The position numbers were made by a program, and so were the translations under genes. Below the pieces are notes generated by a model, which was not told the origin of the DNA, did no database searches, and saw only the letters and a list, made by a program, of their open reading frames with translations. From Acidobacteriota bacterium (GTDB lineage: Bacteria; Acidobacteriota; Thermoanaerobaculia; Multivoradales; UBA5704), in the NCBI GenBank assembly GCA_040005235.1, contig JBDTZG010000093.1, positions 1 through 16,047 of the forward strand: a DNA stretch of 16,047 nucleotides. Reading direction: 5' to 3'. Positions 1 to 16,047 of the stretch are shown here, piece by piece (the first letter of the stretch is position 1; each line of letters opens with the position of its first letter).

Positions 1-244
1 TGAGCTGGCCCAGGCCAGTAGTGAGCTGGCCCAGCTCGGTAGTGAGCTGGCCCAGCCCAGTGGTGAGCTGGCCCAGCCCGGTGGTGAGCTGGCCCAGCCC
101 GGTGGTGAGCTGGCCCAGCCCGGTGGTGAGCTGGCCCAGCCCGGTAGTGAGCTGGCCCAGGCCGGTGGTGAGCTGGCGCAGCCCGGCAGTGAGCTGGCGC
201 AGGCCAGTTGTGAGCCGGCGCAGCCCAGGAGTGGGCTGGAGCTC
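1..244. repeat. 21-bp tandem repeat array, consensus GAGCTGGCCCAGCCCGGTGGT; 11 units plus a degenerate 12th; truncated at the left window edge
   Basis: Units start at 2, 23, 44, 65, 86, 107, 128, 149, 170, 191 and 212, with a remnant at 233. Units 4-6 equal the consensus and divergence rises toward the right. There are no unique spacers. Confidence 0.97.
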
Positions 245-300
245 GGAACGAACGACCTTTCGGGCCGCATTCCGCGACCCGTTTTCACAAGGAGAAGGCG

Positions 301-690
301 ATGAACGACACTTCGTATGCGGACAAGATCAACAACTGGCAGATCACGGCGCAGAACCTCTTGGAGCTTCAAGCCAGCATCCCTGGGTTCGACCCGCCCT
401 TCAGCGACTTCAAGCAGAAAGTCGAGGATCTGCGGGCGTCCCACGACAAGGTTCAGATGCTGCGCGGCGCCCTCCACGAGTCGGTGGTGCTCCGCCGCAA
501 GCTGGATCAGGAGACCCGCCGGTCGGCCCGCCGATTGGCGGCCGTCACGCGTGGACATCTGGGTTTCGACAATCCGAAGCTGGTGAGCTTCAACTTCCGG
601 TCGGAGGACTCCCTCCGCCGGGGGCGGAGGGCGAAAGGCTCGGCTCCGGCCGCATCTTCAACCGACGCGAAGCCGGCAGTGCAGTCGTAG
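301..690 (+). CDS. Small, predicted all-helical hypothetical protein (129 aa) with a basic, low-complexity C-terminal tail
   Basis: ATG at 301 with a strong RBS (AAGGAGAAG, 289-297). GC3-rich codon usage, amphipathic helical pattern, and C-terminal HLGFDNPKLVSFNF followed by an RRGRRAK tail. Confidence 0.85.
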   Translation: MNDTSYADKINNWQITAQNLLELQASIPGFDPPFSDFKQKVEDLRASHDKVQMLRGALHESVVLRRKLDQETRRSARRLAAVTRGHLGFDNPKLVSFNFRSEDSLRRGRRAKGSAPAASSTDAKPAVQS

Positions 691-749
691 GTTCGTAGGC
701 CCCGTCGTGCGGCTGAAGTTCCCCGGGGAAGCGTCCGGACGGTGAAGTC

Positions 750-800
750 TGAGGGGCAAGGAAGGTGGGGCGGCGCCGCCTCACCCCTTCCGCCGCCTCA
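750..800 (+). terminator. Long GC-rich stem-loop downstream of 301..690 (terminator or mRNA-stabilising hairpin; no U-tract)
   Basis: TGAGGGGC..GGAAGGTGGGGCGG pairs with CCGCCTCACCCCTTCC..GCCGCCTCA, with small bulges. Confidence 0.5.
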
Positions 801-828
801 AAGCGAAGAAGCCGGATCGTATCGCGTC

Positions 829-877
829 TTGACATAATGCCCATAGGTAGAGGAGTATCCGCAAGGTGGTACAAAAT
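829..877 (+). promoter_or_regulatory. Candidate sigma70-type promoter region for 959..1429
   Basis: Locally AT-rich. Perfect TTGACA at 829-834 and TGGTACAAAAT ending near 877, but the two elements are not at canonical spacing. Confidence 0.3.
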
Positions 878-958
878 AGCGTGATACGGACATAGCAGCC
901 GACCGATTTTCCCAAAGAATGCCGTCAAGGCCGGTGCGCCGCACCCAGGAGGGGTTTC

Positions 959-1429
959 GTGACGAAGACCTTCAAGGTTTCTCTCGGTGGCCCGTTGTTA
1001 GACCAGGTCGATGCAATGGCCGCCAACGACGGGGTGGAGATCGTGGAACTGATCCGCCGAATTCTTTGGCTTTGGTTTCTGGCCGGGTCGGAAAGGCTGG
1101 TCCCGTCCGGTAAGGAGTCTTTACCAGCCGACCTCGTGCTCCTTATGGCCGAAGCGCTTCGGAGCTATAGGCAGTCGCTTGACGCTTATGTGCGAATCCG
1201 GAGACTCCTGCTCGAGCATCCGGTCGTGGACGGAAGCGGACCCCTGGTCGTGACCGTTTTGTCCGATCTGGAGATCTTCGGTGATGCCGTTTCCCAGGTA
1301 CCGGGACTGGTCGAACAGGTCGAAGACGGCTGGCGGGTGGTCACGCAACTCCGCCAGACGGCGAAGCTTGGGATCCTCGTTCCCTACGATCCGGAAAGCT
1401 CGGCTCCCGGGGACGTGAGCGATCCTTAG
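959..1429 (+). CDS. Hypothetical protein with an N-terminal ribbon-helix-helix (CopG/MetJ/Arc-like) segment
   Basis: GTG start preceded by AGGAGGGG. The N-terminus KTFKVSL-GGPLLDQVDAMAANDG-VEIVELIRRIL fits the beta-strand/helix/Gly-turn/helix RHH pattern. The C-terminal part is unrecognised. Confidence 0.6.
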   Translation: MTKTFKVSLGGPLLDQVDAMAANDGVEIVELIRRILWLWFLAGSERLVPSGKESLPADLVLLMAEALRSYRQSLDAYVRIRRLLLEHPVVDGSGPLVVTVLSDLEIFGDAVSQVPGLVEQVEDGWRVVTQLRQTAKLGILVPYDPESSAPGDVSDP

Positions 1430-1449
1430 GTCCTGAACGGGGAAAGTGC

Positions 1450-2133
1450 TCAGGCGGCACGTGCGGCTGCGGCTTCGAAAACCCGGCGTGGGAGCGGGTC
1501 GCCCTCGGCCGGGTCGTCCCACTTGGCTACATCTGCGCCGATCGGAACGGCAGGCTCTTGAGGTTTCGGCTTCGAAAAGACCAGACCGAGATCCTGCAGG
1601 CCGGTTTCCATGGTCTGGGCGACTCTGATGGTTGTGAGCAAACCCTCTAGGGCTTTCCGTGCCGCGGCCAGGACGAGGGGCAAGTCTTCGTCAACCTCCA
1701 GGTCGCGCAAGCGCTTGATTTTCGGCAAGTCCTCTCGGGCCTGCTCTCGAACCTGGCGGACGCTGAAGTTGCGTACGTTCTGGGCGACCCTGGAGAAGTC
1801 CGACTCCGGCATTTCGACTTCGGGCGCTGCGGCCTGCTTCATTCGCTCGGCCTTGACCGCCGCCTTCAAATCCGAAAGGGCCACCCCGAACAGTTCCGCC
1901 ACATGCGCCTGGCTCCGGCAATGGCTCTCCAACGCCTGCCGGTTAGCTGTCGAAGGCCGGATCGCTTCGCAGCAGGCTCGGACTTCTTGGGGAGAGGGCT
2001 GCCAGAGCCCCTCCTGCCACTCGCCCTCCGGATGCGATTTCCGGGCGATCCGGGAAAAAAACTCGTCGAGCGCGAGGCGCAGGCGCGCTTCTGGCGCCTC
2101 GCCCTTTTCGGGATCTTTAGGCTTCGTACGCAT
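1450..2133 (-). CDS. Hypothetical protein (227 aa) with an N-terminal CC-x15-HC-x4-H putative metal-binding domain and a helical C-terminus
   Basis: ATG at 2133 (MRTKPK) has GAGGAAG upstream, so it is preferred over the track start at 2169. Motif: RKSHPEGEW...W.PS..E.RACCEAIRPS...LESHCRSQAHVAELFGV. Confidence 0.75.
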   Translation of the reverse strand: MRTKPKDPEKGEAPEARLRLALDEFFSRIARKSHPEGEWQEGLWQPSPQEVRACCEAIRPSTANRQALESHCRSQAHVAELFGVALSDLKAAVKAERMKQAAAPEVEMPESDFSRVAQNVRNFSVRQVREQAREDLPKIKRLRDLEVDEDLPLVLAAARKALEGLLTTIRVAQTMETGLQDLGLVFSKPKPQEPAVPIGADVAKWDDPAEGDPLPRRVFEAAAARAA

Positions 2134-2333
2134 CGTCTTCCTCGGATATTTCTTGAAGTCCCCCCACATACGAAGAGTGCGCGCCGGAGGCGAAAGAGGG
2201 ACGTAATATGACCTCCAAAGGAAACAAGTAGCCGCATTCTAGGACGAGTGGGCGAAAACCGGAACGCCTGGCGCGATGACCACGTTGATCCGGAGTAAAG
2301 ATCCCGCCGACGGCTGTTTCGAGCGCCGTTTTG

Positions 2334-2368
2334 TTGCGCTGGCCAGGATTCGGTGGGACAATCCCACC
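2334..2368 (+). promoter_or_regulatory. Promoter of the TA operon (TTGCGC-17bp-GACAAT, extended TG) with the overlapping inverted repeat GGTGGGA-CAA-TCCCACC
   Basis: -35 at 2334-2339 and -10 at 2357-2362. A perfect 7-bp inverted repeat at 2352-2368 covers the -10 and abuts ATG 2369. No SD sequence. Confidence 0.65.
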
Positions 2369-2602
2369 ATGGCAACAGCGACGGCAGACGCGAAGCGGCG
2401 CGTTGTACTTCCTGCGGTAAGCCCCGGGGACATCTTCGATATCCAGAGTCAGGGCGAAGGTCGCTTGCTTTTGGTGCGCCTTGAGCCTCCGAAGCCCGAA
2501 CCCAAGATGAGCCTGGAGCGGTGCGTCGAAGTGATCGCCGCGACCCCCCTTCGGCCGACGATGACCTGGGAAGCTCTGAAGGCCATCACCCGGGAGCCAT
2601 GA
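2369..2602 (+). CDS. vapB: Antitoxin, AbrB/MazE-like (VapB type), 77 aa
   Basis: MATATADAKRRVVLP...PGDIFDIQSQGEGRLLLVRL fits the swapped-hairpin AbrB pattern. ATGA overlap with the downstream PIN gene. The start is reassigned from 2276 to 2369. Confidence 0.8.
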   Translation: MATATADAKRRVVLPAVSPGDIFDIQSQGEGRLLLVRLEPPKPEPKMSLERCVEVIAATPLRPTMTWEALKAITREP

Positions 2603-3024
2603 TTCTCCTCGACACCAATGTCCTGATCTACGCGTCCACCGCTCGATCGCCTTTCTTCGAGTGGGCACGGCAAACCATCGCCGAAGGAGTTTCGGAGGGT
2701 GGAGCGGCCGTCAACACAGTGTGCCTCTCGGAGGTCTGCGTCGGCGATGCCGAACCGGAGCTCGTCGCCGACCGGCTCCGAAGTTGGGGGATTACCCTTC
2801 TCGATATCCCGGTTGCCGCCGCGGAGCCGTGCGCCAGTGCGTACTTTCGCTATCGAGAGCGTCGGCGCGCTGAATCCGGTCGCGACTCTCCCTCGATACC
2901 GTTGCCCGACTTTTTTATCGGCGCGCATGCCATGGTCATGGGCTGGCCCATCGCGACGGCTGACGAGGGACGTTTTCAAACGTATTTCCCTGCGGTCGCA
3001 CTCCGAACGCCTCTATTGGGCTGA
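2599..3024 (+). CDS. vapC: PIN-domain ribonuclease toxin (VapC family), 141 aa
   Basis: MILLDTNVLIY, CLSEV, LPDFFIGAHA and IATADEGRF supply the conserved PIN acidic residues. It is translationally coupled to the antitoxin (ATG at 2599). Confidence 0.93.
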   Translation: MILLDTNVLIYASTARSPFFEWARQTIAEGVSEGGAAVNTVCLSEVCVGDAEPELVADRLRSWGITLLDIPVAAAEPCASAYFRYRERRRAESGRDSPSIPLPDFFIGAHAMVMGWPIATADEGRFQTYFPAVALRTPLLG

Positions 3025-3047
3025 CCTGCCGACGACGAGCAGCCGGT

Positions 3048-4457
3048 CTACGACACCAGCCCCTGCAGCAGCGCCCACAACGCCGCCACATGCTCCCGCT
3101 CGGTCGCCTCGGCGCCGATCGAGACCCGGACCATCCACCGCCCTTGGAGCACCGCGGGCGTCAGGTAGGCCTTGCCAGAGGCGTTCGCCTTTTCGGCCCA
3201 ATCCAGTGTGTGGCGGTCGAGGTCCTCGGCTTCGAGGCCGTGGGGTTCATGGCGGATGCAGAGGGTTTGCAGCGCTACGGGGGCGAGCAGACGCCAGTTG
3301 GGGGTCGCCTGAACCTGCTCGGCGAGCCATTGGGCGTTGGCCAAATCGCGGCGCAGGCGGGTGCGGAGCCCTTCGAGGCCCTGTTCGCGGACCAGGAACC
3401 AGAGCTTGAGGGCGCGGAAGCGGCGGCCTAGGGGGAGGCCCCAGTCGCGGAGGTTTTTTACCTGGTCGTCCACCGCGGAGCGGAGGTAGCTGGGCCGGGT
3501 GGACATCACGCGGATCAGGTGGTCGGGGTCGCGCACGTAGTAGAGCGAGCAGTCGAAGGCGACGCCGAGCCATTTGTGGGCGTTCCAAACCAGCGAATCC
3601 GCTCCTTCGATGCCGTTCCACATCGGGCGGCATTCCGGCAGGATCATCGCCGAGCCGGCCATCGCCGCATCGACGTGGAGCCAGAGGCCGTGCGCTTGGG
3701 CGATCTCGGCGATTTCGGCCAGAGGATCGAAGGCGGTAGTGGTCGTGGTGCCGACCGTTGCGACGATCGCGCAGGGCACGTGGCCCGCGGCGAGATCGGC
3801 TTGGATTGCCGCCGCCAGCGCTTCGGGGCGCAGCGCGAAATTCTCGTCGGTTTCCACCGGGCGGACGTTGTCGCGGCCGAATCCGGCGAGCAGGGCGGCT
3901 TTTTCGACCGAGCTGTGGCTGTGCTCCGAGACGTAGACCCGTAGCGCCTTCGGCTCCGCTTGGAGACCCCCTCGCACGAGAGAGAAATCCGTCGTGCGCT
4001 CCCGGGCGCAGAGCAGCGCGAGCAGCGTGCTGGTGGACGCCGTGTCTTGGATCACGCCGCTCCAGGCATCGGAGAGGCCGACCGCCTGGCGCATCCAATC
4101 GGTCGTCACCTCTTCGAGCTCGGTGAGCGCGGGGCTCGATTGCCACGACAGGCCGAGCACGCCGAGGCCCGTGCTCAGTAGATCGCCGAGCACGCTCGCG
4201 AGCGAGGCGTTCGAGGGGAAATAGCCGTAGAAGCCGGGGTGCTGCCAGAGCGACAGGCCGGGCACGAGCAGACGGTCGACGTCTTTGAGGATGTCGGCGA
4301 ACGGCTCTGCCGTTTCCGGCGGAGCGGCGGGGAGGTTCGCCCTGATCTCGCCCGGGGCGCTCCGCGCCATCACCGGGCGGTCGCTCAAGCCCGCGCGATA
4401 GTCGGCGAGCCAATCGACCAGCTGGTGGCCGAAGCGGCGAAACTCTTCCGGGGTCAT
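3048..4457 (-). CDS. ddc: PLP-dependent aromatic L-amino acid (DOPA) decarboxylase, group II
   Basis: MTPEEFRRFGHQLVDWLADY, WQHPGFYGYFP, SPALTELE, HSSVEKA, LHVDAAMAG, NAHKWL (PLP lysine) and PLGRRFRALKLW. From recall, it closely resembles Pseudomonas putida DDC. Confidence 0.93.
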   Translation of the reverse strand: MTPEEFRRFGHQLVDWLADYRAGLSDRPVMARSAPGEIRANLPAAPPETAEPFADILKDVDRLLVPGLSLWQHPGFYGYFPSNASLASVLGDLLSTGLGVLGLSWQSSPALTELEEVTTDWMRQAVGLSDAWSGVIQDTASTSTLLALLCARERTTDFSLVRGGLQAEPKALRVYVSEHSHSSVEKAALLAGFGRDNVRPVETDENFALRPEALAAAIQADLAAGHVPCAIVATVGTTTTTAFDPLAEIAEIAQAHGLWLHVDAAMAGSAMILPECRPMWNGIEGADSLVWNAHKWLGVAFDCSLYYVRDPDHLIRVMSTRPSYLRSAVDDQVKNLRDWGLPLGRRFRALKLWFLVREQGLEGLRTRLRRDLANAQWLAEQVQATPNWRLLAPVALQTLCIRHEPHGLEAEDLDRHTLDWAEKANASGKAYLTPAVLQGRWMVRVSIGAEATEREHVAALWALLQGLVS

Positions 4458-4485
4458 GGCGCCGGCCTGTCCGCGAGCCTGTCCG

Positions 4486-5706
4486 CTATCGGCCGGGCGG
4501 GCTTTCCGGTGCCTGGGGCGCAGGCGGCGGCGTCGCCTCGGGAGAGGGGAGCGGCGCCAACGGGCTGGCCGGGCTCTCAGGAGTCGCGGCGGCGGCAGCC
4601 GCCGGAACCCGGGCCGGGGCGTCCGCGGCTTCCAGCGGATCTTCGGGCGGTACTCCGATCAAGTGCCGGTATTCGGCGGCCTCGGCCGGCGGCCGGGCGA
4701 CGATCAACGAGTCTTTCTCCAGCTCCTGCTCGTACTGCGCGAAGCGGTCCTTGAACAGCCGGTTGCGCTCGCGGGCTTCGATCTCGGCCTGCACCTCAGG
4801 GAAGGGGCGGACATAGGAGGGGCGCCGCTCCGCCATTTGCAGCAGGTGGGTGCCGCCGCGTCCTTCGGTGGGTTCGCTCGATGCGCCGGGCGCGAGATTC
4901 CAGGCGGCCTGCACGATCCCGGGATCGAGATCGCTCTGCGACAGCCAGCCGAGATCGACGACGGCGCTGCCGAGCCCCTTGTCCTCGAACGGTTTCGCGG
5001 CGTCGGTCAAGGACTGGCCCGCGGCGACCGACGCGCGGATCTGGCTCGCGATCTTCGCGCGTTCCGCGGCGCTCGACGTCTTCTCGGACAGGATGACGGC
5101 CTCGCGCAGGTGAACCTGCTCGGGCACGCGGAAGAGGTCGACGTTCTTCTGGTAGTAGCGCCGCAGGTCGTCTTCTTCCAGCTTGATCTTTCCTTGGACT
5201 TCGCGGCCGATCAGCTCGCGGACCCGCAGGTTCTTTCGCAGGTTTTCGCGCAAGTCTTTCTCGTTCATGCCGCTCTGCGCGAGCGCCCCCCGGAACTGCT
5301 CATCCGAGGTGATGTTGAACCCCTCGCGCATCTGTTGCACCGAGGCGTCGACTTCCTGCTCGGTGGCCGAGATGTTCAGCTGGTCGGCGCGCGATTGGAG
5401 CAGCAGATCCTCGTAGAGGTTTTTGAACACCACCTCGCCCGCGCTCGCAAGCGCCTGATCGCGCTCCTGCGGGTCGAGGTTCTTGCGGGCGATCTCGTGG
5501 CGCATGTCCTCGCGCGCGACGTCGTAATCGTGCTGCGTCGCGATGCGGTCGTTGATCCGCAGGACGATCTTGCCGACCACCTCGGCGGCGACCGGCCGCG
5601 CGGTAGCGAGGGGGGTGAGCCCGAGGAGCATCAGCACGGCGCCCGACGCGACGCGCTTCGGGAGGGAACGGAGCTTCAAGTCATCGGCTGGCGGTTTTGG
5701 GGTCAC
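4486..5706 (-). CDS. SurA-like periplasmic chaperone / parvulin (PpiC-type) peptidyl-prolyl isomerase
   Basis: Signal peptide, then AEVVGKIVLRINDRIAT (SurA N-domain), EQEVDASVQQMRE, LRRYYQKN..F..PEQVHL, a degenerate parvulin domain and a Pro/Ala-rich tail. GTG 5706 with GAGG upstream was chosen, but the start is uncertain. Confidence 0.85.
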   Translation of the reverse strand: MTPKPPADDLKLRSLPKRVASGAVLMLLGLTPLATARPVAAEVVGKIVLRINDRIATQHDYDVAREDMRHEIARKNLDPQERDQALASAGEVVFKNLYEDLLLQSRADQLNISATEQEVDASVQQMREGFNITSDEQFRGALAQSGMNEKDLRENLRKNLRVRELIGREVQGKIKLEEDDLRRYYQKNVDLFRVPEQVHLREAVILSEKTSSAAERAKIASQIRASVAAGQSLTDAAKPFEDKGLGSAVVDLGWLSQSDLDPGIVQAAWNLAPGASSEPTEGRGGTHLLQMAERRPSYVRPFPEVQAEIEARERNRLFKDRFAQYEQELEKDSLIVARPPAEAAEYRHLIGVPPEDPLEAADAPARVPAAAAAATPESPASPLAPLPSPEATPPPAPQAPESPPGR

Positions 5707-6571
5707 GGTAGACGCCTCGGTATTCGAAGGGGAGATTGCGCGCATAGATCTCGACATTGTAGCGATGCCGGGCCTCGCCCACCAGCTTACCGACCACCGA
5801 ATCCGCCAGCGCGCGCCGCAGGCGGCGGCGAATCTCGGGCCGGGCGCGTTCTAGGGGAATCGTCTCGGCCGGAAAATGCTCGGTGACCTGGAAGATGTGA
5901 AACCCGTAATCGGCCGATACCACCGGGCTCACCTCTCCCGGCTGGAGGCGAAAGATCACCTCGGCGAAAGTTGCGGGCAGATCGCTTGCGGCCAGCTCGC
6001 CCTGGTCGCCGCCGCGCTCGGCGCTCGGATCCCGCGAGTACTTGCGGGCGATCTGCGCGAAGTCGGCCCCGGCGGAGAGATCGCCCAGCGCGCGCTCCGC
6101 TTCGCTCCGCCGCTCGACCAGCACCTGGCGCAGCCGTACCCTCTCGGGCCGCGCGAACTCGGCCCCGTGATCCCGGTAATAGGCGGCCACCTCCGCATCG
6201 GTCGGCTCGGCGACCTCGGCGGCGAGCAGCGCGTCGATCCCGCGGCGCCCACGGCTCCCGGCCGATTCCGCCGTCGAGGTCGCCGGATCGGGCTCCGGGG
6301 GTGCGAGCTTGCGTGCGGCCGCCAGGTGTTCGAGCAGCCGCTCGTCGAGGAACTGATCGAACAGGGCGGACAGCACGTCGCTCGCGAGCAGCCCGGCGGA
6401 TTCGCCCACGACTTCCGACACGTAACCCCGGAACTGCGGATAGCGAAGCTCCTCCCGGTCGATCCGCGCTACGGCATCCGCGGCCGGCGGGAGCGGGCGT
6501 CGGCAGGCCGAAAGCTCCAGCAGGCCGAGGCAGGCGGCCAGGACGAGGATCGACGACGAGGCGCGGGTCAT
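5681..6571 (-). CDS. Lipoprotein foldase, parvulin (PpiC-type) peptidyl-prolyl isomerase, PrsA/SurA-like
   Basis: Lipobox LSAC. Parvulin motifs GADFAQIARKYSRDPSAERGGDQG and LQPGEVSPVVSADYGFHIFQV. It lies 9 bp downstream of mfd. Confidence 0.88.
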   Translation of the reverse strand: MTRASSSILVLAACLGLLELSACRRPLPPAADAVARIDREELRYPQFRGYVSEVVGESAGLLASDVLSALFDQFLDERLLEHLAAARKLAPPEPDPATSTAESAGSRGRRGIDALLAAEVAEPTDAEVAAYYRDHGAEFARPERVRLRQVLVERRSEAERALGDLSAGADFAQIARKYSRDPSAERGGDQGELAASDLPATFAEVIFRLQPGEVSPVVSADYGFHIFQVTEHFPAETIPLERARPEIRRRLRRALADSVVGKLVGEARHRYNVEIYARNLPFEYRGVYRDPKTASR

Positions 6572-6580
6572 TGGGCGAGC

Positions 6581-9500
6581 TCAGTGGGCGAGGCTTTCGA
6601 GCGTCGCGGTCGCGGTCGCCAGGGCGTCCGCGCCGGAGCTGACCGGAAGGGTCAGGACGCCGGTTGGGCTGAAGCTCGCGCCTTGCAAAGTCGACACCAG
6701 GTCGATCAGCCGGGCGACGTCCACCCGGGCGTCGCGGCGCAGGCGGATGGTCAGCTCGCGTCCGCGGCTGGCGATCGACTGGACCCGCAGCGCTTCGGCC
6801 GCCCGCTTGAGCGCCGCGACCTCGACCAGGGTCAGCACAGCGGCGGGCGGCGGGCCGAAGCGATCGGTCAGCTCGGCGAGCACCTCTTCGCGCGACTGCT
6901 CGGCGGCGGCGATCTTGCGGTAGATCTCCATGCGCAGGTTCGCGTCGGCCACGTACCCTTCCGGGATCGACATCGCGACAGGCAAATCGATCTGCGCCGA
7001 CGGCGCCTCCTCGATCGCCTCGCCGCGAAGCTCGCGGACGGCCTCTTCGAGCAGCTTCAAGTAGGTTTCAATGCCCACGGCGGCGATCTGGCCGCTCTGC
7101 TCGGAGCCGAGAAGGTTGCCGGCACCGCGGATTTCGAGGTCGCGCGCCGCGATACGGAACCCGGCGCCCAGGTCGGTGAATTCCCGAATCGCCGCCAGGC
7201 GCTTGCGCGCCGATTCGGACAGGACGCGATCGGACGGCACCAGGAGGTAGCAATAGGCGAGCTGGTTGCTCCGCCCGACTCGGCCCCTAAGCTGGTAGAG
7301 CTGGGCCAGGCCGAAGCGTTCGGCGCGGTGGACGATCATGGTGTTGACGTTCGGAATGTCGATGCCGTTTTCGATGATCGTGGTGGCGAGCAGGACGTCG
7401 AACTTGCCTTCGGTGAAGGCGTGCATTCGCTTGGACAGCTCCGCCTCTTCGAGCTGGCCGTGGCCGACGGTGACCCGCACCCCGGGCACCAGATCGCGCA
7501 GATAGGTGAGCATCTTCTCGATCGTCTCGACACGGTTGTAGACGTAATACACCTGGCCGCCGCGCTCGATCTCATGCTCGATCGCCTCGCGGATCACCTC
7601 CGGATTGAACGGCAGGATCGCGGTCTCGACCGCCATCCGGTCTTTGGGCGGCGTCTCGATCACCGACAGGTCGCGCACCCCGGCGAGCGACAGCTGGAGG
7701 GTACGGGGCACCGGAGTGGCCGACATCGCGAGAACGTGAACGTTCTTCTTCGCCTGTTTCAAGCGTTCCTTCTGGGCCACGCCGAAGCGCTGTTCCTCGT
7801 CGACGATCATCAAGCCCAGCTTCGGCATCTCGATGTCTTTCGACAGCAGCCGGTGGGTGCCGATCAAAATGTCGACCGTCCCCTCTTTCAGGCGTTTCTG
7901 GAGGATTTTGGTTTCCGGCCCCGAGCGGAAGCGGGAAATCATCTCGATCCCGACGGGGAAACCGGCGAAGCGTTTGCGGAAGGTTTCCAAGTGCTGGTCG
8001 GCGAGGATCGTGGTCGGCGCGAGCACCGCCACCTGGAATCCGGCGTCCACCGCCTGAAACGCCGCGCGCATGGCGACCTCCGTCTTGCCGTAGCCGACGT
8101 CGCCGCACAGCAGCCGGTCCATCGGCCGCTCGCTGCGAAGGTCCTGCCGGATCGCGCCGATCGCCTCGTGCTGGTCGGCGGTCTCTTCATAGGCGAACGC
8201 CGCGGCGAACTGGCGCACCCAATCGGAATCCTCCTCGCCGCCCATCGACGGAGCCTTCGCCAACTGGCGCTCGGCGTAGAGCTTGAGCAGCTCGTCCGCC
8301 ATGTCGCGCAGGCTCGACTTGACCTTGGCTTTAGCCTTGTTCCACGAGGTGCCGCCGAGCTGGTCGAGGCGCGGCGCCACCCCTTCGATGCCGCTGTATT
8401 TCTGCACCTGATCGAGGCGCGAAAGCGGCAGAAGCAGACGCCGGCCGCTCGTGTACTCGATCTCCATGACTTCGGATTCGATCGCCGCGGGTGCGCTCAT
8501 GTCGCGCAGCGCGGGCGGCAGGCGGGTGACGTCTTCGACCCCGCCGCGCACCGAGCGCAAGGCGATGAACCGGCCGATGCCGTGGTCGGAATGAACCACG
8601 TAGTCGCCCACCTTCAAATCGCGCAGGCCGGAGAGGAATGGGCCAAAGCGCGATTTGGAAGTCCGCCGCTGGAGCTTCGCCTGGGGCAGGATCTGCTGCT
8701 CGCCGTAGAGCGCCACTCCCGCCGCCGGCAGGCGGAAGCCGCGCGACAGCTCGCCCGCGATCAACTCCACCCCATCGCGCCCGATCTCGATCTCGCGCCC
8801 GGCGAGGAGGTCCTCCATCCGCGCGTGGTGGGCGGGTGGAGCGACGATCACGCAGCGCTCGCCGCGTGAGCGGGCGGTCGCCACCTCCTGCGGAAAGCGC
8901 GGCAGCTGGCCGTGGAAGAGATCCGTGGTGGAAGCGGCGAAATCGATCGCCTCCACTCGGGCGCCGTCGCGGATCTCCGACAGCACCAGGTCGCCCACCC
9001 GGACTTCGGCGCCCGAAAGCTGCGCCTCGACCGCCTCGGCCGGCCACTCTAGATCTTCCGGCGAGATCGCCAGCCGCCGATGGTCGCGCCGCGCGCTCCA
9101 ATCCGCGGCGAGCCGCCCGGCGTGGTGCTCCACCTCGGCCGCGAGAGCCGGGGGATCGACCGCCAGGATCAATGGGAGCAGGGGGCGCGGCGAGGAGCGC
9201 TCGGTGGACGCCAAGGTGTCGGCAAGCGTTGCCGTGCGTGCGCCCAGCAAAGGCAGGTAATTCTCCCAGCCGGGAAACCCGCCCGACTGCCGCAACGCGG
9301 CCAGTCGTTCTGCCGCCTCCGGACCGAGATCGGTGCCGCCGAGCGACCCGAGCAGATCGGCCAGTTTGCCCGCCGCCGCCGGCCCGCCGGGAAACAGAAG
9401 CAGCGGCAGGATACGGATCGAGTCGAGCGTGTCTTCCGAGCGTTGGCTCTGGGCATCGAACCAGCGAATCGCCTCGATCGTGTCGCCGAACAGGTCGAGC

Positions 9501-10072
9501 CGGATCGGCGCGTCCTCGCCCGGCGGAAAGAAATCGACCAAACCGCCGCGCACCGCGTACTCGCCGATCTCGTAGACCAGGTCGGTCCGGTGGTAGCCGA
9601 AGCGGTCGAGATGCCGCACCAACTCATCGATCGGCAGGTCGTCTCCCGGCTTGACGTCGAGCGCCGAGGCGGAAAAATCGGCGCGTGCCGGCAGCCGCCG
9701 GAAGAGAGCGCGCGGGGTCGCGACCACCGTCCGCGCGGACCCCGAAACGATCCGGTCGAGCGCCACCGACTCCTGCGCCCGGACAAGCAGCGAGGTCTCG
9801 GTCTCCTGATAAGGGGTGAGCGATGGGGCGGGAAAGTACACCGCCCGCCCCTCCCCGAACAGCTGCACCGCCTCCAGCCAGGCGAGCGCGTCCGCCTCGC
9901 GCGGCACGACCACCAAAAGCGGCCGGCCGAGATCCTCCGCAAGCAGCTCGCCCACCCACGCCGCGGCAGGGGCCGGCAGGCGTACGACATCGCCCAAACG
10001 CTGGACCAGCGCCCGGTAGGGGGCGCTCGCCCGAAGTTGCTGGGAGGCCGGAGCCCAAGATCGGTCGCTCAT
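6581..10072 (-). CDS. mfd: Transcription-repair coupling factor (about 1163 aa)
   Basis: UvrB-homology region (EYAVRGGLVDFF), RID (GDYVVHSDHGIGRF), PMDRLLCGDVGYGKTEVAMRAAF, DEEQRFGV, SATPVPRTL, QLRGRVGRS and TRG motif RDLEIRGAGNLLG. The true start is near 10072 (or 10087), not 10942. Confidence 0.98.
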   Translation of the reverse strand: MSDRSWAPASQQLRASAPYRALVQRLGDVVRLPAPAAAWVGELLAEDLGRPLLVVVPREADALAWLEAVQLFGEGRAVYFPAPSLTPYQETETSLLVRAQESVALDRIVSGSARTVVATPRALFRRLPARADFSASALDVKPGDDLPIDELVRHLDRFGYHRTDLVYEIGEYAVRGGLVDFFPPGEDAPIRLDLFGDTIEAIRWFDAQSQRSEDTLDSIRILPLLLFPGGPAAAGKLADLLGSLGGTDLGPEAAERLAALRQSGGFPGWENYLPLLGARTATLADTLASTERSSPRPLLPLILAVDPPALAAEVEHHAGRLAADWSARRDHRRLAISPEDLEWPAEAVEAQLSGAEVRVGDLVLSEIRDGARVEAIDFAASTTDLFHGQLPRFPQEVATARSRGERCVIVAPPAHHARMEDLLAGREIEIGRDGVELIAGELSRGFRLPAAGVALYGEQQILPQAKLQRRTSKSRFGPFLSGLRDLKVGDYVVHSDHGIGRFIALRSVRGGVEDVTRLPPALRDMSAPAAIESEVMEIEYTSGRRLLLPLSRLDQVQKYSGIEGVAPRLDQLGGTSWNKAKAKVKSSLRDMADELLKLYAERQLAKAPSMGGEEDSDWVRQFAAAFAYEETADQHEAIGAIRQDLRSERPMDRLLCGDVGYGKTEVAMRAAFQAVDAGFQVAVLAPTTILADQHLETFRKRFAGFPVGIEMISRFRSGPETKILQKRLKEGTVDILIGTHRLLSKDIEMPKLGLMIVDEEQRFGVAQKERLKQAKKNVHVLAMSATPVPRTLQLSLAGVRDLSVIETPPKDRMAVETAILPFNPEVIREAIEHEIERGGQVYYVYNRVETIEKMLTYLRDLVPGVRVTVGHGQLEEAELSKRMHAFTEGKFDVLLATTIIENGIDIPNVNTMIVHRAERFGLAQLYQLRGRVGRSNQLAYCYLLVPSDRVLSESARKRLAAIREFTDLGAGFRIAARDLEIRGAGNLLGSEQSGQIAAVGIETYLKLLEEAVRELRGEAIEEAPSAQIDLPVAMSIPEGYVADANLRMEIYRKIAAAEQSREEVLAELTDRFGPPPAAVLTLVEVAALKRAAEALRVQSIASRGRELTIRLRRDARVDVARLIDLVSTLQGASFSPTGVLTLPVSSGADALATATATLESLAH

Positions 10073-10192
10073 GCGGCCGGAAAGCATAGCGCGGGGGGGC
10101 GGGTTTCCGTGAACCCCAGATAGCCACCGTGCTATCGTTCGGTCGTAACCCCACCGCGTATTCACGAACCTTTGACCCGAGGGCTCGAAATC

Positions 10193-10954
10193 ATGACCGT
10201 CGCCTCGCCGCCGCCTCCGCCCCCGCAAAATCCGTATGCCCCGCAACCGCCGGTCGGACCGAAAAAGACCTCGCCTTGGGTTTGGGTGGGCGCCGGTTGT
10301 CTCGTGCTGCTCCTGTTGGGCTGCGCGACCTGCGTGTTCATCGGCTACAAGGCGAAGCATCTCGCCGAGAAATACAAGGACAACCCCGAGCTGTTGGCGG
10401 CCGAGCTGATGATCAAGGCGAACCCGGACCTCGAAGAGGTCAGCTCCGACAAGGACGCCAAGACGATTACCGTCCGCGACAAGAAGACCGGCAAAGAAAT
10501 GACCCTCAACTTCGAGGACATCAAGAACGGCAAGTTCTCGATGGAGGGCGAGGACGGCTCGAAGGTCGACATCGGCGACGGCCAGGTCCAGGTGACCGAC
10601 GAAAAGGGCCAGACAACCAACATCGCCGGGGGAGTCGGCACGTCGAACCTGCCGGATTGGCTGCCCATGTACCCTGGCGCCACGGCGCAGAGCTCGTTCT
10701 CTTCCACGGGAGCGGACAGCGGCGCAGTGACGATGCTTGAGTCGACCGATTCGGCCGATCAGGCGCTCGCGTTCTACGAAGGGAAGCTCAAGGACGCCGG
10801 CTTCACGGTCGAAAAGAACGCCTACCAGGTGAACGGCAAGACGGCAGGCGGCACGGTCACCGCGAAGAACGGCGGCGACAAGGGCGAGGTGAACGTGGCG
10901 GTCGCAGACCAAGGCGGCAAGACGTCGATCACCATCACCCACAGCAACAAGTAG
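10193..10954 (+). CDS. Single-pass membrane-anchored hypothetical protein with an extracytoplasmic domain
   Basis: Pro-rich N-terminus and KK followed by a hydrophobic helix (PWVWVGAGCLVLLLLGCATCVFIGY). Then a beta-rich region and LPDWLPMYPGA...ALAFYEGKLKDAGF. Strong codon bias; ATG 10193 with GAGG upstream. Confidence 0.85.
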   Translation: MTVASPPPPPPQNPYAPQPPVGPKKTSPWVWVGAGCLVLLLLGCATCVFIGYKAKHLAEKYKDNPELLAAELMIKANPDLEEVSSDKDAKTITVRDKKTGKEMTLNFEDIKNGKFSMEGEDGSKVDIGDGQVQVTDEKGQTTNIAGGVGTSNLPDWLPMYPGATAQSSFSSTGADSGAVTMLESTDSADQALAFYEGKLKDAGFTVEKNAYQVNGKTAGGTVTAKNGGDKGEVNVAVADQGGKTSITITHSNK

Positions 10955-10960
10955 TCGACC

Positions 10961-12994
10961 ATGGCGAGGGGGACCGCACGCGGCATCGCCCTCCCTCGCC
11001 TATTCGGTTCGTTTCTCGCGTTCGCGGGGATCGCTTTGGCCCCCGCTTTGGCTCTCGGGGCGACCCTGCCCTCACCGCCGAAACCCCCGTGGGAGGCGTG
11101 GCTCGACCCTCGCGAATTGCCCCGCCTGCCGCCGGGCGATCAAGTCCTCTTGCGCAGCAGCCACTGCCCTAGCGGTTGCCGGTTCGACCGGACGTCGGAC
11201 GGCGATCCTCGTTTCCTGCGGATCGAAAACGGCGAGGCGGTGATCTTCGAAGAGGCGGGCGCCGGGGCGGTCGTAAGAATCTGGATGACCCAGGGGCCGG
11301 GCGTTTCGGCGCCGCTCGATCCGGCGATCCGGTTGCTCGTGCGGGTGGACGGCGAGGTCAACCCACGGATCGACTTGCCGCTGCCGGCCCTGTTCGACGG
11401 CACGACGCCGGGGTTTACCGCGCCGCTCGCCTTCGATCGCGAGCCCTCGAGCGGCGGCAACGTCCTCTACCTGCCGATCCCCTATCGCAAAGGGTGCAAG
11501 ATCTCGCTGACCGGCGCGGAGCACGAACGGCTCTGGTTCCAGGTCACGTTCCATCGCCTCGCCCAGGCGGGGGCGATCTCGACCTACACCGGCGCCGAGG
11601 ACCTGTCGGCTTGGCGGGCGATCCTGGCGCGCGCGGGGAACGATCCTTGGCCCGACTCGCAAAACGCTCCGGGTGCGCGCACCGACTCGGGCAGCGCGAA
11701 CCTGATCCCCGGCGGAGTTGTCTCGATCCCCGCTCCCGCCGCCCCCGGGTACCTGCGCGCAGTCCGGCTGCGCACCAGCCCGAGGGGCGCCGAGCGGCTT
11801 CGCCTGCGCTTGACGTTCGACGGCGAGCGCCGGGCCGATCTGCCTCTCGCCGATTTCTTCGCCGTGCGCGGAGCGGTCGTGCCACCGCGCGGGTTGCTGT
11901 TCGGACTGGCGGACGACGGCTTTCTCTACGCCTACTTCCCCGCGCCGTTTTTCGCCAATGCCAAGGTCGAGGTCTTCGACGCCGGGGCGCCCGGCTCCCG
12001 CCCCGTCAAGGTCGAATGGCAGATCGGCTGGAACGCCGAGGTCCCGGCGGCCGACAGCGGCCGGTTCGCAGTGGCATTCTCGGTCGCCGGGGAATCGATG
12101 CCCGAGGGCGACCTGCGGCTTCTGGACGCTTCAGGGAGCGGCAAATGGGTGGGGCTTTTCGCCGAAATCGGCAGCGTGCGCACGCTTTCGCGCGAAGTGC
12201 TCGAAGGGGACGAGCGGGTTTACCTCGACGGCTCGCTCCACCCAGGCCTCTACGGCACCGGGGTGGAAGACCTGTTCAACGGCGGCTTCTATTTCGACCG
12301 GGGTCCGTTCGCGCTGCCGCTCCACGGCTCGCCCGCGCATCGCATGACGCCGGCGGGCGAGGACGTCACCTCGGCGTATCGCCTGTTCCTGTCGGATGCG
12401 ATCCCTTTCCGGAACGAAATTCGCGCCGGCCTCGAAACCGGACCGACCGGCAACTTGGCCGTCCGCGCCCGGACGGTCGCCTACTACTACTCCCGACCCC
12501 TTCCGGCGCTGGCGAAATTTGATCGGCTCGATCCTTCCGACGCCCTCTCGGCGCTGGCCCACTCCTATGGGGTGACGGCGCCCGACGCGGCCTGCGCGGC
12601 CTTCCTGTCCCGATGGGAGGGGGGACCGCTCGTGGCGCCCGAAGAGACCGCGACTTCTTGCACCTACGCGGCTCCCGGAGGGCGGGACCGCTTCATCCTC
12701 CGCAGGCTTGCGCCGAACGGTGCCCTTCGCCTTCGCCGCCGCTTGGACGTGGGCCGGCCGAATCCGGCGGCCGACGTCTTTGTAAACGGCGTCCGGGTCG
12801 GCGCGTTCCCGTTCCAAGAGGCGAACCCCTTTCGCCGCCTGCGCGAGGTGGATCTGGACATCCCCCCCGGCGTGGCGGCCGGGGCGACGGAGCTGCATTT
12901 CGAGGTCGTGCCGCGGTTTTCCGCCGCCGGAGGGGAGCAGCACTCCGAGGTGATCTATGAGCTCTGGGCGGGCGAGCGACGTTCTCCACAGTAG
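10961..12994 (+). CDS. Secreted DUF2961-domain protein (glycoside hydrolase family 172-like)
   Basis: Signal peptide, GAGAVVRIWMT, YLPIPYRKGCKI, and EGDERVYLDG...LYGTGVEDLFNGGFYF...SAYRLFLSDAIPF, all typical of DUF2961. It lies 6 bp after the upstream gene. Confidence 0.85.
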   Translation: MARGTARGIALPRLFGSFLAFAGIALAPALALGATLPSPPKPPWEAWLDPRELPRLPPGDQVLLRSSHCPSGCRFDRTSDGDPRFLRIENGEAVIFEEAGAGAVVRIWMTQGPGVSAPLDPAIRLLVRVDGEVNPRIDLPLPALFDGTTPGFTAPLAFDREPSSGGNVLYLPIPYRKGCKISLTGAEHERLWFQVTFHRLAQAGAISTYTGAEDLSAWRAILARAGNDPWPDSQNAPGARTDSGSANLIPGGVVSIPAPAAPGYLRAVRLRTSPRGAERLRLRLTFDGERRADLPLADFFAVRGAVVPPRGLLFGLADDGFLYAYFPAPFFANAKVEVFDAGAPGSRPVKVEWQIGWNAEVPAADSGRFAVAFSVAGESMPEGDLRLLDASGSGKWVGLFAEIGSVRTLSREVLEGDERVYLDGSLHPGLYGTGVEDLFNGGFYFDRGPFALPLHGSPAHRMTPAGEDVTSAYRLFLSDAIPFRNEIRAGLETGPTGNLAVRARTVAYYYSRPLPALAKFDRLDPSDALSALAHSYGVTAPDAACAAFLSRWEGGPLVAPEETATSCTYAAPGGRDRFILRRLAPNGALRLRRRLDVGRPNPAADVFVNGVRVGAFPFQEANPFRRLREVDLDIPPGVAAGATELHFEVVPRFSAAGGEQHSEVIYELWAGERRSPQ

Positions 12995-13062: not shown

Positions 13063-13518
13063 TTAACGACTCGCATTCGCCGACGTCTCAGTGCAGCCAG
13101 CTCCCGGTGGCAAGCGACCGGAGGAAAGTTGCAGCCGCACGGTCACCTCGTTGAGCTCCGCTTCGACCTGACGGCGAACCCATTCGCCGAGAGCCACGGC
13201 TCGCGCCGAGGGGGCGCCGGGGCCGCGGCTTGGCCGCCGCTCAAAAAACCGGGCCGCTTCGGTCACCGCCTCTGGGGTGGAGCCTACCGCGGCGGCCAGC
13301 TTGGCGCGGGTGGCCGGGCGGGGACTCTTCATGCCCGTTTCGTACGCCGAGATCTGGGACGGATGCATTTCGGCAAGCTCTGCGAGCTGTTCTTGGGTCA
13401 GGCCGCGTGACGCGCGGAGCAGCTGAACCCAGACGGCGGGGTCATCGATCGCGCTGCGCTTCAACAGCTCCGTGCGCGAAGTGACGGGTCGTTCGGTGCG
13501 CTTCGGGTAGTGTGGCAT
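13063..13518 (-). CDS. XRE-family helix-turn-helix regulator (about 151 aa)
   Basis: LLRASRGLTQEQLAELAEMHPSQISAYETGMKSPRPATRAKLAAAVG is a canonical HTH_3/XRE. The start is placed at ATG 13518. The track's extension to 14313 overlaps two other genes and looks non-coding. Confidence 0.88.
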   Translation of the reverse strand: MPHYPKRTERPVTSRTELLKRSAIDDPAVWVQLLRASRGLTQEQLAELAEMHPSQISAYETGMKSPRPATRAKLAAAVGSTPEAVTEAARFFERRPSRGPGAPSARAVALGEWVRRQVEAELNEVTVRLQLSSGRLPPGAGCTETSANASR

Positions 13519-13619
13519 AACCTTTTCGCCTACTTTCTCCCGTGTCAACGGGAATCCCATTCCGCGCCCCCCGGGAACCGGACTCTTCCGGCCGCCCCGA
13601 CACCCCAAGGAGGAATGAC

Positions 13620-13934
13620 GTGAAACCCACCTTCCGTCGCCTTGCCGTCCCCGTGATCTTGGTCTTGACGTTGACTCTAACCGCTCCATCGCCCGGCTTC
13701 TGCGCCCCTGAAGGGGCGGGCCTGCGCTGGTACGATTGGCTCGGATTTCTTTCCAACCTCTGGGCACCCCAGGGTTGCAGTGTCGAGCCAGTCGGCGGGT
13801 GCGGCCGGGCAAGCGCCACAGCTCCACGGGAAAACGGCTGTAGTGTCGATCCCGTCGGCCGCTGCGTTGAAGCGGTCGCCCCCCAGCAGGACCACGGTTG
13901 CAGTCTGGATCCCGTCGGCCGCTGCACAGACTGA
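13620..13934 (+). CDS. Secreted 104-aa pro-peptide with three GCS[VL][DE]PVG[GR]C repeats
   Basis: AAGGAGG (13607-13613) lies 6 nt before GTG 13620. Sec-type signal MKPTFRRLAVPVILVLTLTLTAPSPG, then a Trp-rich segment and three Cys-bracketed repeats with synonymous codon variation. Confidence 0.85.
   Translation: MKPTFRRLAVPVILVLTLTLTAPSPGFCAPEGAGLRWYDWLGFLSNLWAPQGCSVEPVGGCGRASATAPRENGCSVDPVGRCVEAVAPQQDHGCSLDPVGRCTD
13773..13925 (+). repeat. Three 30-bp coding repeats (13773-13802, 13836-13865, 13896-13925) separated by divergent 33- and 30-bp linkers
   Basis: The repeats translate as GCSVEPVGGC, GCSVDPVGRC and GCSLDPVGRC. GATCCCGTCGGCCGCTGC is identical in copies 2 and 3. Confidence 0.95.
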
Positions 13935-13987
13935 CCGGGCGCAGCCTGCATCCGCAGCCGGTAGCTCGGGAGCGGGCACCGGCTGCT

Positions 13988-15481
13988 TCAACCCCGGGTC
14001 CCACCGCCGAAACGAGGAACCCCGTTGCCCGCCGGAGCACTCGCCGCGACCAGCGCACGGTGAGCTTGGCGCGCCAGCTCCGCGGTAGCCCGGTCTCGTT
14101 CGGCAGCATCCAAGAATAAGCGCACAGCTGCCAGCTCTTCCCTTTCGATTCTGAGGGATCGGAAGATTGCGAGGGTCTGGCGGGCCAGGATCTTCGTCTC
14201 CGCAGGGCGCCCGGTCGAAAGGTAGACCTCCGCCAGGTCGAGCGCTGCGAGCGCCGCATCGTACGAGATCTGAATTGCTGCAAAGTCGCGCCAGACCTGG
14301 TCGAGCGCGGCAATGGCGTTTTCGAACCGTCCGGTGGCTGCCGCGACCCTCCCTTCGAGCCAAAGCACTCGAATCAGATCGAGCGCCTCCCGCCGCGACT
14401 CAGCTAGAGCGCGAATCTGCGGCAGCAACGCCACAGCCTCCACACCCCGCCCCAATTCCACCAGATTGGCGGCGAGGTTGAACTGTGCCACCAGTCGGTC
14501 GCGCGGGTCGCTTCGCTCGTCGAACGTCGCACAGGCGTTCTGCAGCGCCCCGATAGCACCCTCTGAATCGTTGCTATGCTGGAGGAGAACGGCCCGGCTG
14601 AGCCAGAGGAATCCCAGCTCCCCCGGCTGAGCCGCTTCAAACGCCTGGTCCTGCAGCGCTAAAGCCCCGCCGAAACGGCGTTGATCTCGGTAAAGCTTGG
14701 CTTCGGCGTCGAGCATTCGGGCGCGGGAGAACGGAGAGGGGAATCCCACCGGCGGGGCGACATCCTTCGCCCGGACATATGCAATATTCGCCTGATCGAA
14801 GGCGCCTTCCGCTCGGCGGGCGTTTCCGAGATAGACCCAGGCATACTCGCGGGAGGCCGCCTGAAGCGCCTCTGGGGCGACGAGGCGTTCGGCGACCCAA
14901 ATGCCCAACTCAGCAAGGCAGATCGACTCTTCGAGATCCCGCACTGTGGCCCGGTCGCTTTCGTGAGCCAGCTTTTCGACCAGCGCCCAGGTGGGGGCTA
15001 CGGGCATCCGCTCGAGGGTGGAGCGGCGGGCGGCCGGTTGTTTCTGGAGCGAGCGAAGCTCTACCCACATTGCGGCAGCTTGGGCGCGGGCGAGGTCAAA
15101 CATCCGATCGCGCGCCCCGGCGAACAGCTCGCGCCGCACCTCTCGGCTGATTCTGGCGGCGGCCCGTTCGAGATCGACCCGAATCTCCGTCGGCAGATCG
15201 GCACCCAGGGTATGGACCACCTCGTCGGGGCGAATCGAGCGCACGGCGGTCAGCGCGCTCTCCGCCGCTCCAGGTGCCGCCTTCCAGTGGGCGGCGAACT
15301 GGTCGAGCTGTTCTCGCGCGAGCGGCTCCTTCGCCTTGCCCAGCTCCAGCTTGCCGAGCGCTCCGGGCGAGATCCCGGCAAGCTCGGCCGCCTGGCGCTG
15401 GTCCAAGCCCAGCACGTCTCGAATTACCTTGATCGCGGCGTTGGTCGCCGGCGCAAGGGGCGGTTCAGGCGTCTCTTCCAT
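13988..15481 (-). CDS. XRE-HTH plus tetratricopeptide-repeat transcriptional regulator (497 aa)
   Basis: N-terminal IRDVLGLDQRQAAELAGISPGALGKLELG (XRE HTH). C-terminal TPR-like helices include AWVYLGNARRAEGAFDQA, AQFNLAANLVELGRGVEA and LEGRVAAATGRFENAIAAL. GAGGT RBS upstream of ATG 15481. Confidence 0.88.
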   Translation of the reverse strand: MEETPEPPLAPATNAAIKVIRDVLGLDQRQAAELAGISPGALGKLELGKAKEPLAREQLDQFAAHWKAAPGAAESALTAVRSIRPDEVVHTLGADLPTEIRVDLERAAARISREVRRELFAGARDRMFDLARAQAAAMWVELRSLQKQPAARRSTLERMPVAPTWALVEKLAHESDRATVRDLEESICLAELGIWVAERLVAPEALQAASREYAWVYLGNARRAEGAFDQANIAYVRAKDVAPPVGFPSPFSRARMLDAEAKLYRDQRRFGGALALQDQAFEAAQPGELGFLWLSRAVLLQHSNDSEGAIGALQNACATFDERSDPRDRLVAQFNLAANLVELGRGVEAVALLPQIRALAESRREALDLIRVLWLEGRVAAATGRFENAIAALDQVWRDFAAIQISYDAALAALDLAEVYLSTGRPAETKILARQTLAIFRSLRIEREELAAVRLFLDAAERDRATAELARQAHRALVAASAPAGNGVPRFGGGTRG

Positions 15482-15690: not shown

Positions 15691-16047
15691 ATGGCTGATG
15701 CGCCCCCCTCGATCTCGAATCCCCAGCTCCCTGTGGACTCCCCTCTCGCGGCGCGCCCCCCTCGCCCGGCCGCCCACCCGGACTTCCGGTCGATCGTCGC
15801 CGAGTGCATGGCCCGCGGCGATCAGGCTCTCGCGCAGTCGGACCTTGCCGCCGCAGCACGCCATTACGCCACGGCCGGGGTGACCTACCGGTTCCTCGGC
15901 GCGGCCGATCTCGCGGCAACCGCCTTTCTCGAGCTGGCGGCGGCGCATCTGGCCCTCGGCCAGCGGGACCGTTTTGCTGCCGTCGCCGCAACCCTCCGCG
16001 GGCTCCGGCAGCCCGGCACCCCCGAGGGAATCCTGTTCGTCCGGGTC
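15691..16047 (+). CDS. Partial TPR-like helical protein, running off the right edge and absent from the ORF track
   Basis: ATG 15691 opens 119 stop-free codons: MADAPPSISNPQLPVDSPLAARPPRPAAHPDFRSIVAECMARGDQALAQSDLAAAARHYATAGVTYRFLGAADLAATAFLELAAAHLALGQRDRFAAVAATLRGLRQPGTPEGILFVRV. GC3-biased codons. TAGCCT 7 nt upstream may indicate a leaderless start. Confidence 0.7.
   Translation, partial: MADAPPSISNPQLPVDSPLAARPPRPAAHPDFRSIVAECMARGDQALAQSDLAAAARHYATAGVTYRFLGAADLAATAFLELAAAHLALGQRDRFAAVAATLRGLRQPGTPEGILFVRV

Follow-up and report, generated by a model that had tools for sequence, protein, structure and literature searches.

What is made from a small gene that encodes one short cysteine-bracketed motif three times behind a putative export signal, and what does its position between two genes of HTH regulators say about its role? 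This question is raised by an open reading frame (ORF) of 104 aa in the window, which is the entire 16,047-bp contig (C127) of an Acidobacteriota genome of 6.22 Mb (66% G+C, 140 contigs). An initial annotation had described the motifs as C-x7-C cores and had considered disulfide-looped ligands, a RiPP precursor modified in trans and a metal-binding peptide. The regulator / peptide / regulator context was absent from that annotation and is the decisive context. Taking the analysis as a whole, the ORF may be the propeptide gene of an RRNPP-like three-gene signalling cassette, acting between cells or on the producing cell itself, and we consider the case for this about evenly balanced. The features of the cassette are listed in Table 1.

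Table 1. Features of the three-gene cassette and their positions in the window
Feature	Position	Strand	Remarks
R2 (P0003), short XRE-family HTH regulator	13063..13518	-	about 151 aa; HTH_3 E 1.6e-11, HTH_31 E 4.4e-11
16-bp imperfect palindrome TCCCGTGTCAACGGGA, candidate operator for the cassette HTH proteins	13538..13553	.	12 of 16 positions self-complementary
Shine-Dalgarno AAGGAGG	13607..13613	+	6 nt before GTG start
Pro-peptide gene	13620..13934	+	104 aa; signal sequence about 1-28, Trp/Leu-rich helix 34-48 (13719..13763), then three cores
Core 1 GCSVEPVGGC	13773..13802	+	residues 52-61
Core 2 GCSVDPVGRC	13836..13865	+	residues 73-82
Core 3 GCSLDPVGRC	13896..13925	+	residues 93-102; then only TD and stop codon
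Perfect 9-bp inverted repeat, 15-nt spacer	13954..13986	.	between convergent stop codons; no T tract
R1 (P0002), XRE-HTH + TPR regulator, candidate receptor	13988..15481	-	497 aa; Pfam TPR_12, HTH_3; AlphaFold model

The precursor and its family

The translation of the ORF is as the initial annotation had quoted it, and the DNA of the cores is a three-copy direct repeat (spacing 63 and 60 nt; 68–84% identity). The encoded peptide runs from a basic N-terminus through a hydrophobic run and the segment GLRWYDWLGFLSNLW to the three cores with their Ala/Pro-containing linkers and a two-residue tail. The synonymous core changes that had been pointed out (TGC/TGT, GGT/GGC, CCA/CCC) are present, and the linkers between the cores (GRASATAPREN and VEAVAPQQDH) have diverged. 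The earlier suggestion of selection on the cores agrees with the codon differences from the ortholog in genome G149, which are 12 synonymous and 4 non-synonymous in the cores (30 codons), while 5 synonymous and 15 non-synonymous differences are found in the linkers and tail (23 codons). Moreover, a GGAG-type motif is located at an equal distance from the start in all Cys-type paralogs (10 of 10). The codon pattern indicates that the ORF is a translated gene with purifying selection on its cores. The public sequencing runs listed as containing this stretch include no RNA run; all are DNA metagenomes, two of which may be its source, and they bear on expression neither way.

The signal sequence was judged by inspection (K2/R6/R7, hydrophobic run 8–22, AlphaFold helix 4–21), and this part of the initial description holds. 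Its other part, an amphipathic Trp-rich segment, is predicted to be a helix and is only modestly supported as amphipathic. The AlphaFold2 model, made from a 40-row alignment, has helices only at residues 4–21 (the signal) and 37–47, and the latter helix has a pLDDT of about 60 and a hydrophobic moment of 0.28. For residues 51–104 the pLDDT is below 50, and no compact domain is predicted. Comparison with the relatives gives no lipobox in the window peptide, as the Cys that closes its signal sequence (Cys28, GFC/AP) is not conserved and the closest relatives read GFA there. The modelled peptide is predicted to be exported and largely unstructured.

The genome-wide motif search that the initial annotation had proposed was fruitful. 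A six-frame scan of the 6.22-Mb genome with C-x2-[DE]-P-x-G-x-C gave 28 matches, 24 of which fall within ten paralogous small ORFs of the same build as the window ORF, and the other four are singletons elsewhere. A profile of these ten Cys-type paralogs retrieved 57 proteins from a collection of 5.8 billion proteins; none is annotated as anything but "hypothetical", and those with a named host belong to Thermoanaerobaculia MAGs. Searched with the same profile, a library of 1.84 billion representatives gave 1317 representative clusters when the cut-off was E<=1e-3 and 447 when it was E<=1e-10. Pfam and NCBIfam hold no model that matches the peptide family. Neighbours of the peptide in the ESM Atlas are nameless Acidobacteriota clusters at 0.88–0.89 and, falling short of the 0.9 level, serve only as leads. 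No description of the peptide family, or of an RRNPP-like system in Acidobacteriota, was found in the literature covered, most subscription journals being outside that coverage.

The cores are strongly patterned across the family. The 609 C-x7-C cores of 202 database homologues have Asp as their fourth residue in 565 cases, Pro as the fifth in 582 and Gly as the seventh in 594. Most often a protein carries three cores (107 of 202 homologues), and in 116 of 191 multi-core homologues the chain stops exactly two residues after the last Cys. In this Cys-bracketed subfamily (202 homologues), loss of the Cys pair is not random. These data fit the earlier idea that several related ligands could come from one multi-core precursor.

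In the clade of the window (window, C85, L012, P0006, P0010, P0011, P0014), each of the three cores has Val as its sixth residue. The view that selection keeps the cores of one precursor identical is true of this P-V-G clade and was rejected for the family as a whole, where the similarity at positions 2, 3, 6 and 8 is 0.42 for cores within a precursor vs 0.22 for cores between precursors. The similarity of linkers within a precursor (0.49) is about as high as that of the cores. As cores of one precursor are only moderately more alike than those of different precursors, ligands that differ slightly from one another are the norm, and the window lies towards the uniform end of the range.

Distant paralogs without cysteines also exist in the same genome (C18, C118, C137, C24, C126, C20 and others). 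They still have G-x-x-[hydrophobic]-D-P-x-G, in many cases with R/K/Q-P after it, and a paired regulator. The C-x6-8-C bracket is absent in 20 of the 51 genomic family members examined, and in 7 of these 51 the precursor ends exactly at [DE]-P-x-G (linear type). The initial annotation had raised a random loss of the Cys pair or the DPxG in homologues; no such randomness is seen for the Cys pair within its subfamily, and the Cys-less paralogs retain D-P-x-G. Judged from these comparisons, the conserved unit is hydrophobic-D-P-x-G, with the Cys bracket as a feature of the largest subfamily. The bracketed cores of the window suggest a disulfide ring, and linear Cys-less relatives stand beside them in the same family. 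The linear members that end at [DE]-P-x-G resemble pheromones that are released from the C-terminal end of their propeptide.

A match to the peptide was found in 13 of 301 sampled genomes of the class Thermoanaerobaculia, including all six other genomes of the family-level group of the window, and the richest genomes of the class carry at least 16 scored copies. A phylum-wide sample gave a match in 3 of 401 genomes, all three in the same class. The peptide family thus appears to be confined to one class among the genomes sampled.

The paired regulators and the promoter region

R1 is convergent with the peptide gene, with 53 nt between the stop codons, and R2 lies upstream of the peptide gene in divergent orientation. 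Pfam detects TPR_12 in R1 at E 3.1e-7. The HTH_3 match of R1 (E 2.6e-4, 21.4 bits) falls slightly short of the 23-bit cut-off. Paralogs of R1 pass the HTH_3 cut-off, and the family profile matches the HTHs of HipB, ClgR and DdrO. No signal or membrane segment was seen in the R1 sequence. The AlphaFold model of R1 (pLDDT 88.7) consists of HTH helices (residues 12–65), a long linker helix (98–143) and a TPR superhelix (about 150–481).

Structural comparison of R1 (Foldseek, VIA-align) gave matches to LGN (Z 21.8), RapI (20.0), RapJ (19.8), the Rap of phi3T (19.4), NprR (17.8/17.5) and the Rap of phi105 (16.5). The TPR domain of eukaryotic LGN scores as high as Rap and NprR, so the match shows the fold class only. 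These scores are ties within the repeat fold, which place the modelled R1 in the peptide-binding type of TPR and do not speak for RRNPP homology. Searches of Pfam and NCBIfam for membership in an RRNPP-specific family found none, and only generic TPR, HTH and antitoxin-HTH models were matched. Among PDB sequences, the Rap closest to R1 is RapH (E 2e-4), which appears amid a large number of generic TPR proteins. A complex prediction for the TPR part of R1 (residues 145–485) with the mature peptide (29–104), run without controls, scored 0.01 against a mark of 0.32 and bears on binding neither way.

R2 matches positions 11–99 of the R1-family profile (E 7.7e-17), and by this alignment it is a truncated paralog of the R1 family that consists of the HTH and the first linker only. 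A divergent HTH gene equivalent to R2 was found in most paralogous and orthologous cassettes.

An R1-family gene is located 3' of the peptide in all 20 profile-detected ORFs of this genome (15 convergent, 5 co-directional). Conversely, 26 of the 41 R1-family ORFs of the genome adjoin a profile-detected peptide ORF, and next to four of the 15 "orphan" regulators lies a small ORF that begins with a hydrophobic stretch and has at least two D-P-x-G-like motifs; these four ORFs are distant candidates. For 12 other genomes, a regulator lies within 1.5 kb of 24 of 27 peptide ORFs, and the three ORFs without one belong to two genomes of another order. The pair is convergent in the family-level group of the window and co-directional in more distant families. 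Co-duplication of neighbouring genes alone would keep regulator and peptide together for some time, a point against the signalling reading.

The surroundings of the cassettes were scanned at ten paralogous loci, covering 50 of 58 ORFs of at least 200 aa; the eight left out overlap the cassette genes. HTH_3/HTH_31 and TPR_12 are the only recurrent Pfam families. Other neighbours are unrelated to each other (SpoVG, YbjN-like, T2SSE ATPase, histidine kinase, DNA polymerase III tau, deaminase, RNase P). The unit is a regulator / peptide / regulator cassette inserted in varied surroundings.

Upstream of the peptide gene, the palindrome TCCCGTGTCAACGGGA sits in the 101-bp divergent intergenic region between R2 and the peptide gene. 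At the orthologous locus L012 (G149), ACCCGTTTAAACGGGA is found at the same place after a conserved CATAGCCTTTTC, and ACCC-N8-GGGT palindromes with A/T-rich centres lie upstream of peptide genes on C76, C107, C111 and C59. A first search pattern was rejected as too loose, with 403 sites in this GC-rich genome. A tightened pattern gave 33 sites, 5 of them in the 0.48% of the genome around peptide genes, an enrichment that is circular because the pattern was drawn from those sites. The positional conservation in the ortholog is the better evidence for the palindrome than the genome-wide count. Downstream, the inverted repeat between the convergent genes is possibly a shared transcription stop. 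Scans for consensus promoters and terminators over 13350..14100 gave no match.

Some loci depart from the common layout. At six loci from distant families of the order (L017, L019, L020, L021, L030 and L037, in G129, G189, G185 and G237), the peptide gene is upstream of the regulator on the same strand, and the profile match of the regulator starts only near position 100, so that its HTH may be absent or diverged beyond recognition. Another locus (L010; C107, about 4118–5400) looks like a decaying cassette. Its regulator ORF is truncated to about 300 aa and matches only residues 154–382 of P0002, and its peptide ORF has lost the second Cys bracket and runs on into unrelated sequence, with the upstream palindrome TCCCGTTTAAACGGGT intact.

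A proposed signalling model and competing explanations

According to the model that we propose, the precursor would be exported by the Sec pathway and cut at its linkers into two or three peptides of 9–12 residues, each of which, in the Cys subfamily, would be closed by a disulfide around the Asp-Pro-x-Gly turn. The peptides would accumulate outside the cell, be taken up again and bind the concave face of the R1 TPR superhelix inside the cell. Binding would then shift the occupancy of the palindromic operator by R1 and alter the transcription of the peptide gene, R2 and other targets, with R2, which has no sensor domain, as a competitor or partner. Each of the many diverged copies in a genome would be a channel of its own. 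The strongest form of this proposal is the first RRNPP-like system outside Bacillota, with two dozen private channels per genome that use disulfide-cyclised 9–12-mers cut from one exported precursor; this we put forward tentatively, as possible and somewhat short of an even chance.

The genome holds some of the functions that such a route would use. An Opp/Dpp-type binding protein with two permeases is present in this genome and in all five relatives tested (5 of 5). Two DsbA-like thioredoxin-fold genes are also present, and searches of the genome for DsbB and VKOR found neither, which counts against the model. Further points stand on that side. The outer membrane means that a returning signal needs two crossings. 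D, P and G hardly vary among the paralogs, so only about four variable core positions are left to separate more than 20 channels. The modest excess of likeness among cores of one precursor, matched by the linkers, also weighs against it.

The main rival, which we regard as unlikely and still as carrying real weight, is a secreted or periplasmic effector, such as a disulfide-loop antimicrobial or an adhesive, matrix or binding peptide. Here the XRE regulators would only control expression and would respond to another cue or to the unexported precursor in the cytoplasm. Such a product would suit the export signal and the conserved disulfide loops, as well as the regulators and palindrome at the peptide promoter, and a family found in one class among the genomes searched (13 of 301 in the class, 3 of 401 in the phylum) suits a niche-specific product. 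Moreover, the TPR domain is no more than a candidate partner of the peptide. However, a TPR sensor is needless for simple transcriptional control, and this one has been kept through divergence to about 30% identity and more than 20 duplications. The Cys-less paralogs keep the regulator pairing as well, no folded domain is predicted for the peptide, and the 50 of 58 ORFs scanned at the ten cassettes include no recurrent gene for immunity, transport or processing.

The same neighbourhood scan bears on the RiPP alternative, a multi-core precursor whose Cys, Asp or Pro would be modified by enzymes with genes at other places in the genome. The repetition of short cores, with residues that do not vary and linkers that do, speaks for such a precursor. 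A Sec signal sequence, however, is unusual in RiPP precursors, and the window peptide carries one of Sec type. The class Thermoanaerobaculia is known to make RiPPs, and in the available part of the source the enzymes are adjacent there (PMC13083261). In the window, Pfam gave no modifying enzyme, as the initial annotation had remarked, and no peptidase-transporter or RRE-type gene is seen; nor is such an enzyme among the 50 of 58 large ORFs around the ten paralogous cassettes. HTH and TPR genes being the sole recurrent neighbours argues against a RiPP modified in cis, and at least 20 precursor copies, each with its own regulator and no enzyme, are not a RiPP layout. We consider the RiPP reading improbable. 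A periplasmic peptide that binds metal or buffers redox state through its Cys pairs and Asp is very improbable, and this older alternative has lost ground. Six Cys and several Asp/Glu in about 55 residues of an exported peptide would fit it. However, the 20 of 51 members without the Cys bracket keep D-P-x-G and the regulator pairing, which argues against a metal-binding role, and no metal transporter or metal-responsive regulator recurs nearby. The C-x7-C spacing around a Pro-Gly turn would also favour an intramolecular disulfide.

A transport locus near one cassette was noted separately. The only detected family-5 (Opp/Dpp-type) binding protein of the genome, with its two permeases, lies about 3.4 kb from the cassette on C8 (C8:58003-60791). 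The three ORFs are at 4197-5888, 5806-6903 and 6913-7908 of L041 (C8:60000-74000). The cassette is separated from these genes by a histidine kinase and an uncharacterised ORF of 437 aa, and no ATPase genes were seen beside the transport genes. An Opp-type operon as a conserved partner of the cassette was rejected, as the single family-5 protein in G149 and in G209 is on a contig without a peptide among the matches listed.

Comparison with known systems and other features of the window

In the available parts of three sources, signalling by encoded peptides that act on cytoplasmic HTH-TPR receptors counts as a hallmark of Gram-positive Bacillota (PMC10075063, PMC9765709, PMC12998947). An RRNPP pair is operationally defined, in the accessible text of one of them, as an adjacent TPR receptor of 250–500 aa and a secreted propeptide of 10–100 aa (PMC10075063). 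R1 (497 aa) fits this definition, and the 104-aa propeptide is just above its upper bound. The cassette resembles RRNPP(A) systems (NprR-NprX and PlcR-PapR; more distantly AimR-AimP, Rgg-SHP and PrgX) in its cytoplasmic regulator with an N-terminal XRE-type HTH and a C-terminal TPR superhelix, its adjacent small gene for a Sec-exported propeptide, its palindrome in the promoter region and its many diverged paralogous pairs per genome; this likeness is known here from genes and predicted fold.

Several differences stand against these likenesses. The host is a diderm acidobacterium (Thermoanaerobaculia) and not one of the Bacillota, and the receptor is without sequence-level membership in RRNPP-specific families. 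Peptide and receptor genes are mostly convergent, a truncated HTH paralog forms a third gene, and the cores are Cys-bracketed with a near-invariant D-P-x-G. The cassette is probably best described as RRNPP-like and not as a member of RRNPP(A). Propeptides with multiple pheromones are a known RRNPPA feature, as far as the portions of the sources at hand go (PMC11343458; PMC9765709). The pheromones described in the available text of another source are short, linear and unmodified (PMC12998947), so a disulfide ring would be new.

The Rap-Phr systems of phi3T and phi105, as given in the part of the source available (PMC11343458), are similar in having several pheromone-like cores per exported propeptide and a similar TPR fold (Z 19.4 and 16.5). 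Unlike R1, Rap proteins are without an HTH and act on response regulators, and Phr peptides, unlike the cores of the cassette, are linear penta- to heptapeptides without cysteines. Another likeness concerns R1 and R2. SinR/SinI-type pairs consist of a full-length XRE regulator and a truncated paralog, and the cassette likewise places full-length and truncated members of one HTH family side by side. However, the truncated R2 keeps the HTH and loses the sensor domain, and a secreted-peptide gene lies between the two.

If the signalling model is true, the logic of HTH-TPR peptide signalling would have arisen or spread beyond Bacillota. In uncultured soil Acidobacteriota, which have an outer membrane, it would have undergone a large expansion and would use disulfide-ringed multi-core signals. 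These would be the first ring-closed ligands for a cytoplasmic HTH-TPR receptor. The system would also open a way to study social behaviour in a soil phylum that is dominant and little understood, and its compact peptide, regulator and operator parts would possibly be orthogonal.

Some further features of the window and genome were noted. An ORF of 1453 aa at 6581-10942 (-) encodes Mfd; the mfd model begins at residue 446, and the UvrB-interaction domain is at 428–514, so that either the true start codon lies downstream of the one called or the protein carries about 300 additional residues at its N-terminus. Long ORFs without a Pfam match are found at 4456-5886 (+, 476 aa), within 1-3400 and at 15691-16047 (+, 3'-open at the contig end), and some of them may be shadow frames in GC-rich DNA. 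Convergent with the R2 gene, a 677-aa protein with a signal-like N-terminus and a DUF2961 domain (E 7.6e-41) is encoded at 10961-12994 (+). This gene is not beside the orthologous cassette of G149, where a parvulin-like ORF is located instead. Elsewhere in the genome, the 16-mer CCCCCTGCGCGGGGGC recurs at a spacing of 65–69 bp, in about 20 copies on C68 (about 66763–68028) and 7 copies on C45 (about 9–476), forming CRISPR-like arrays.
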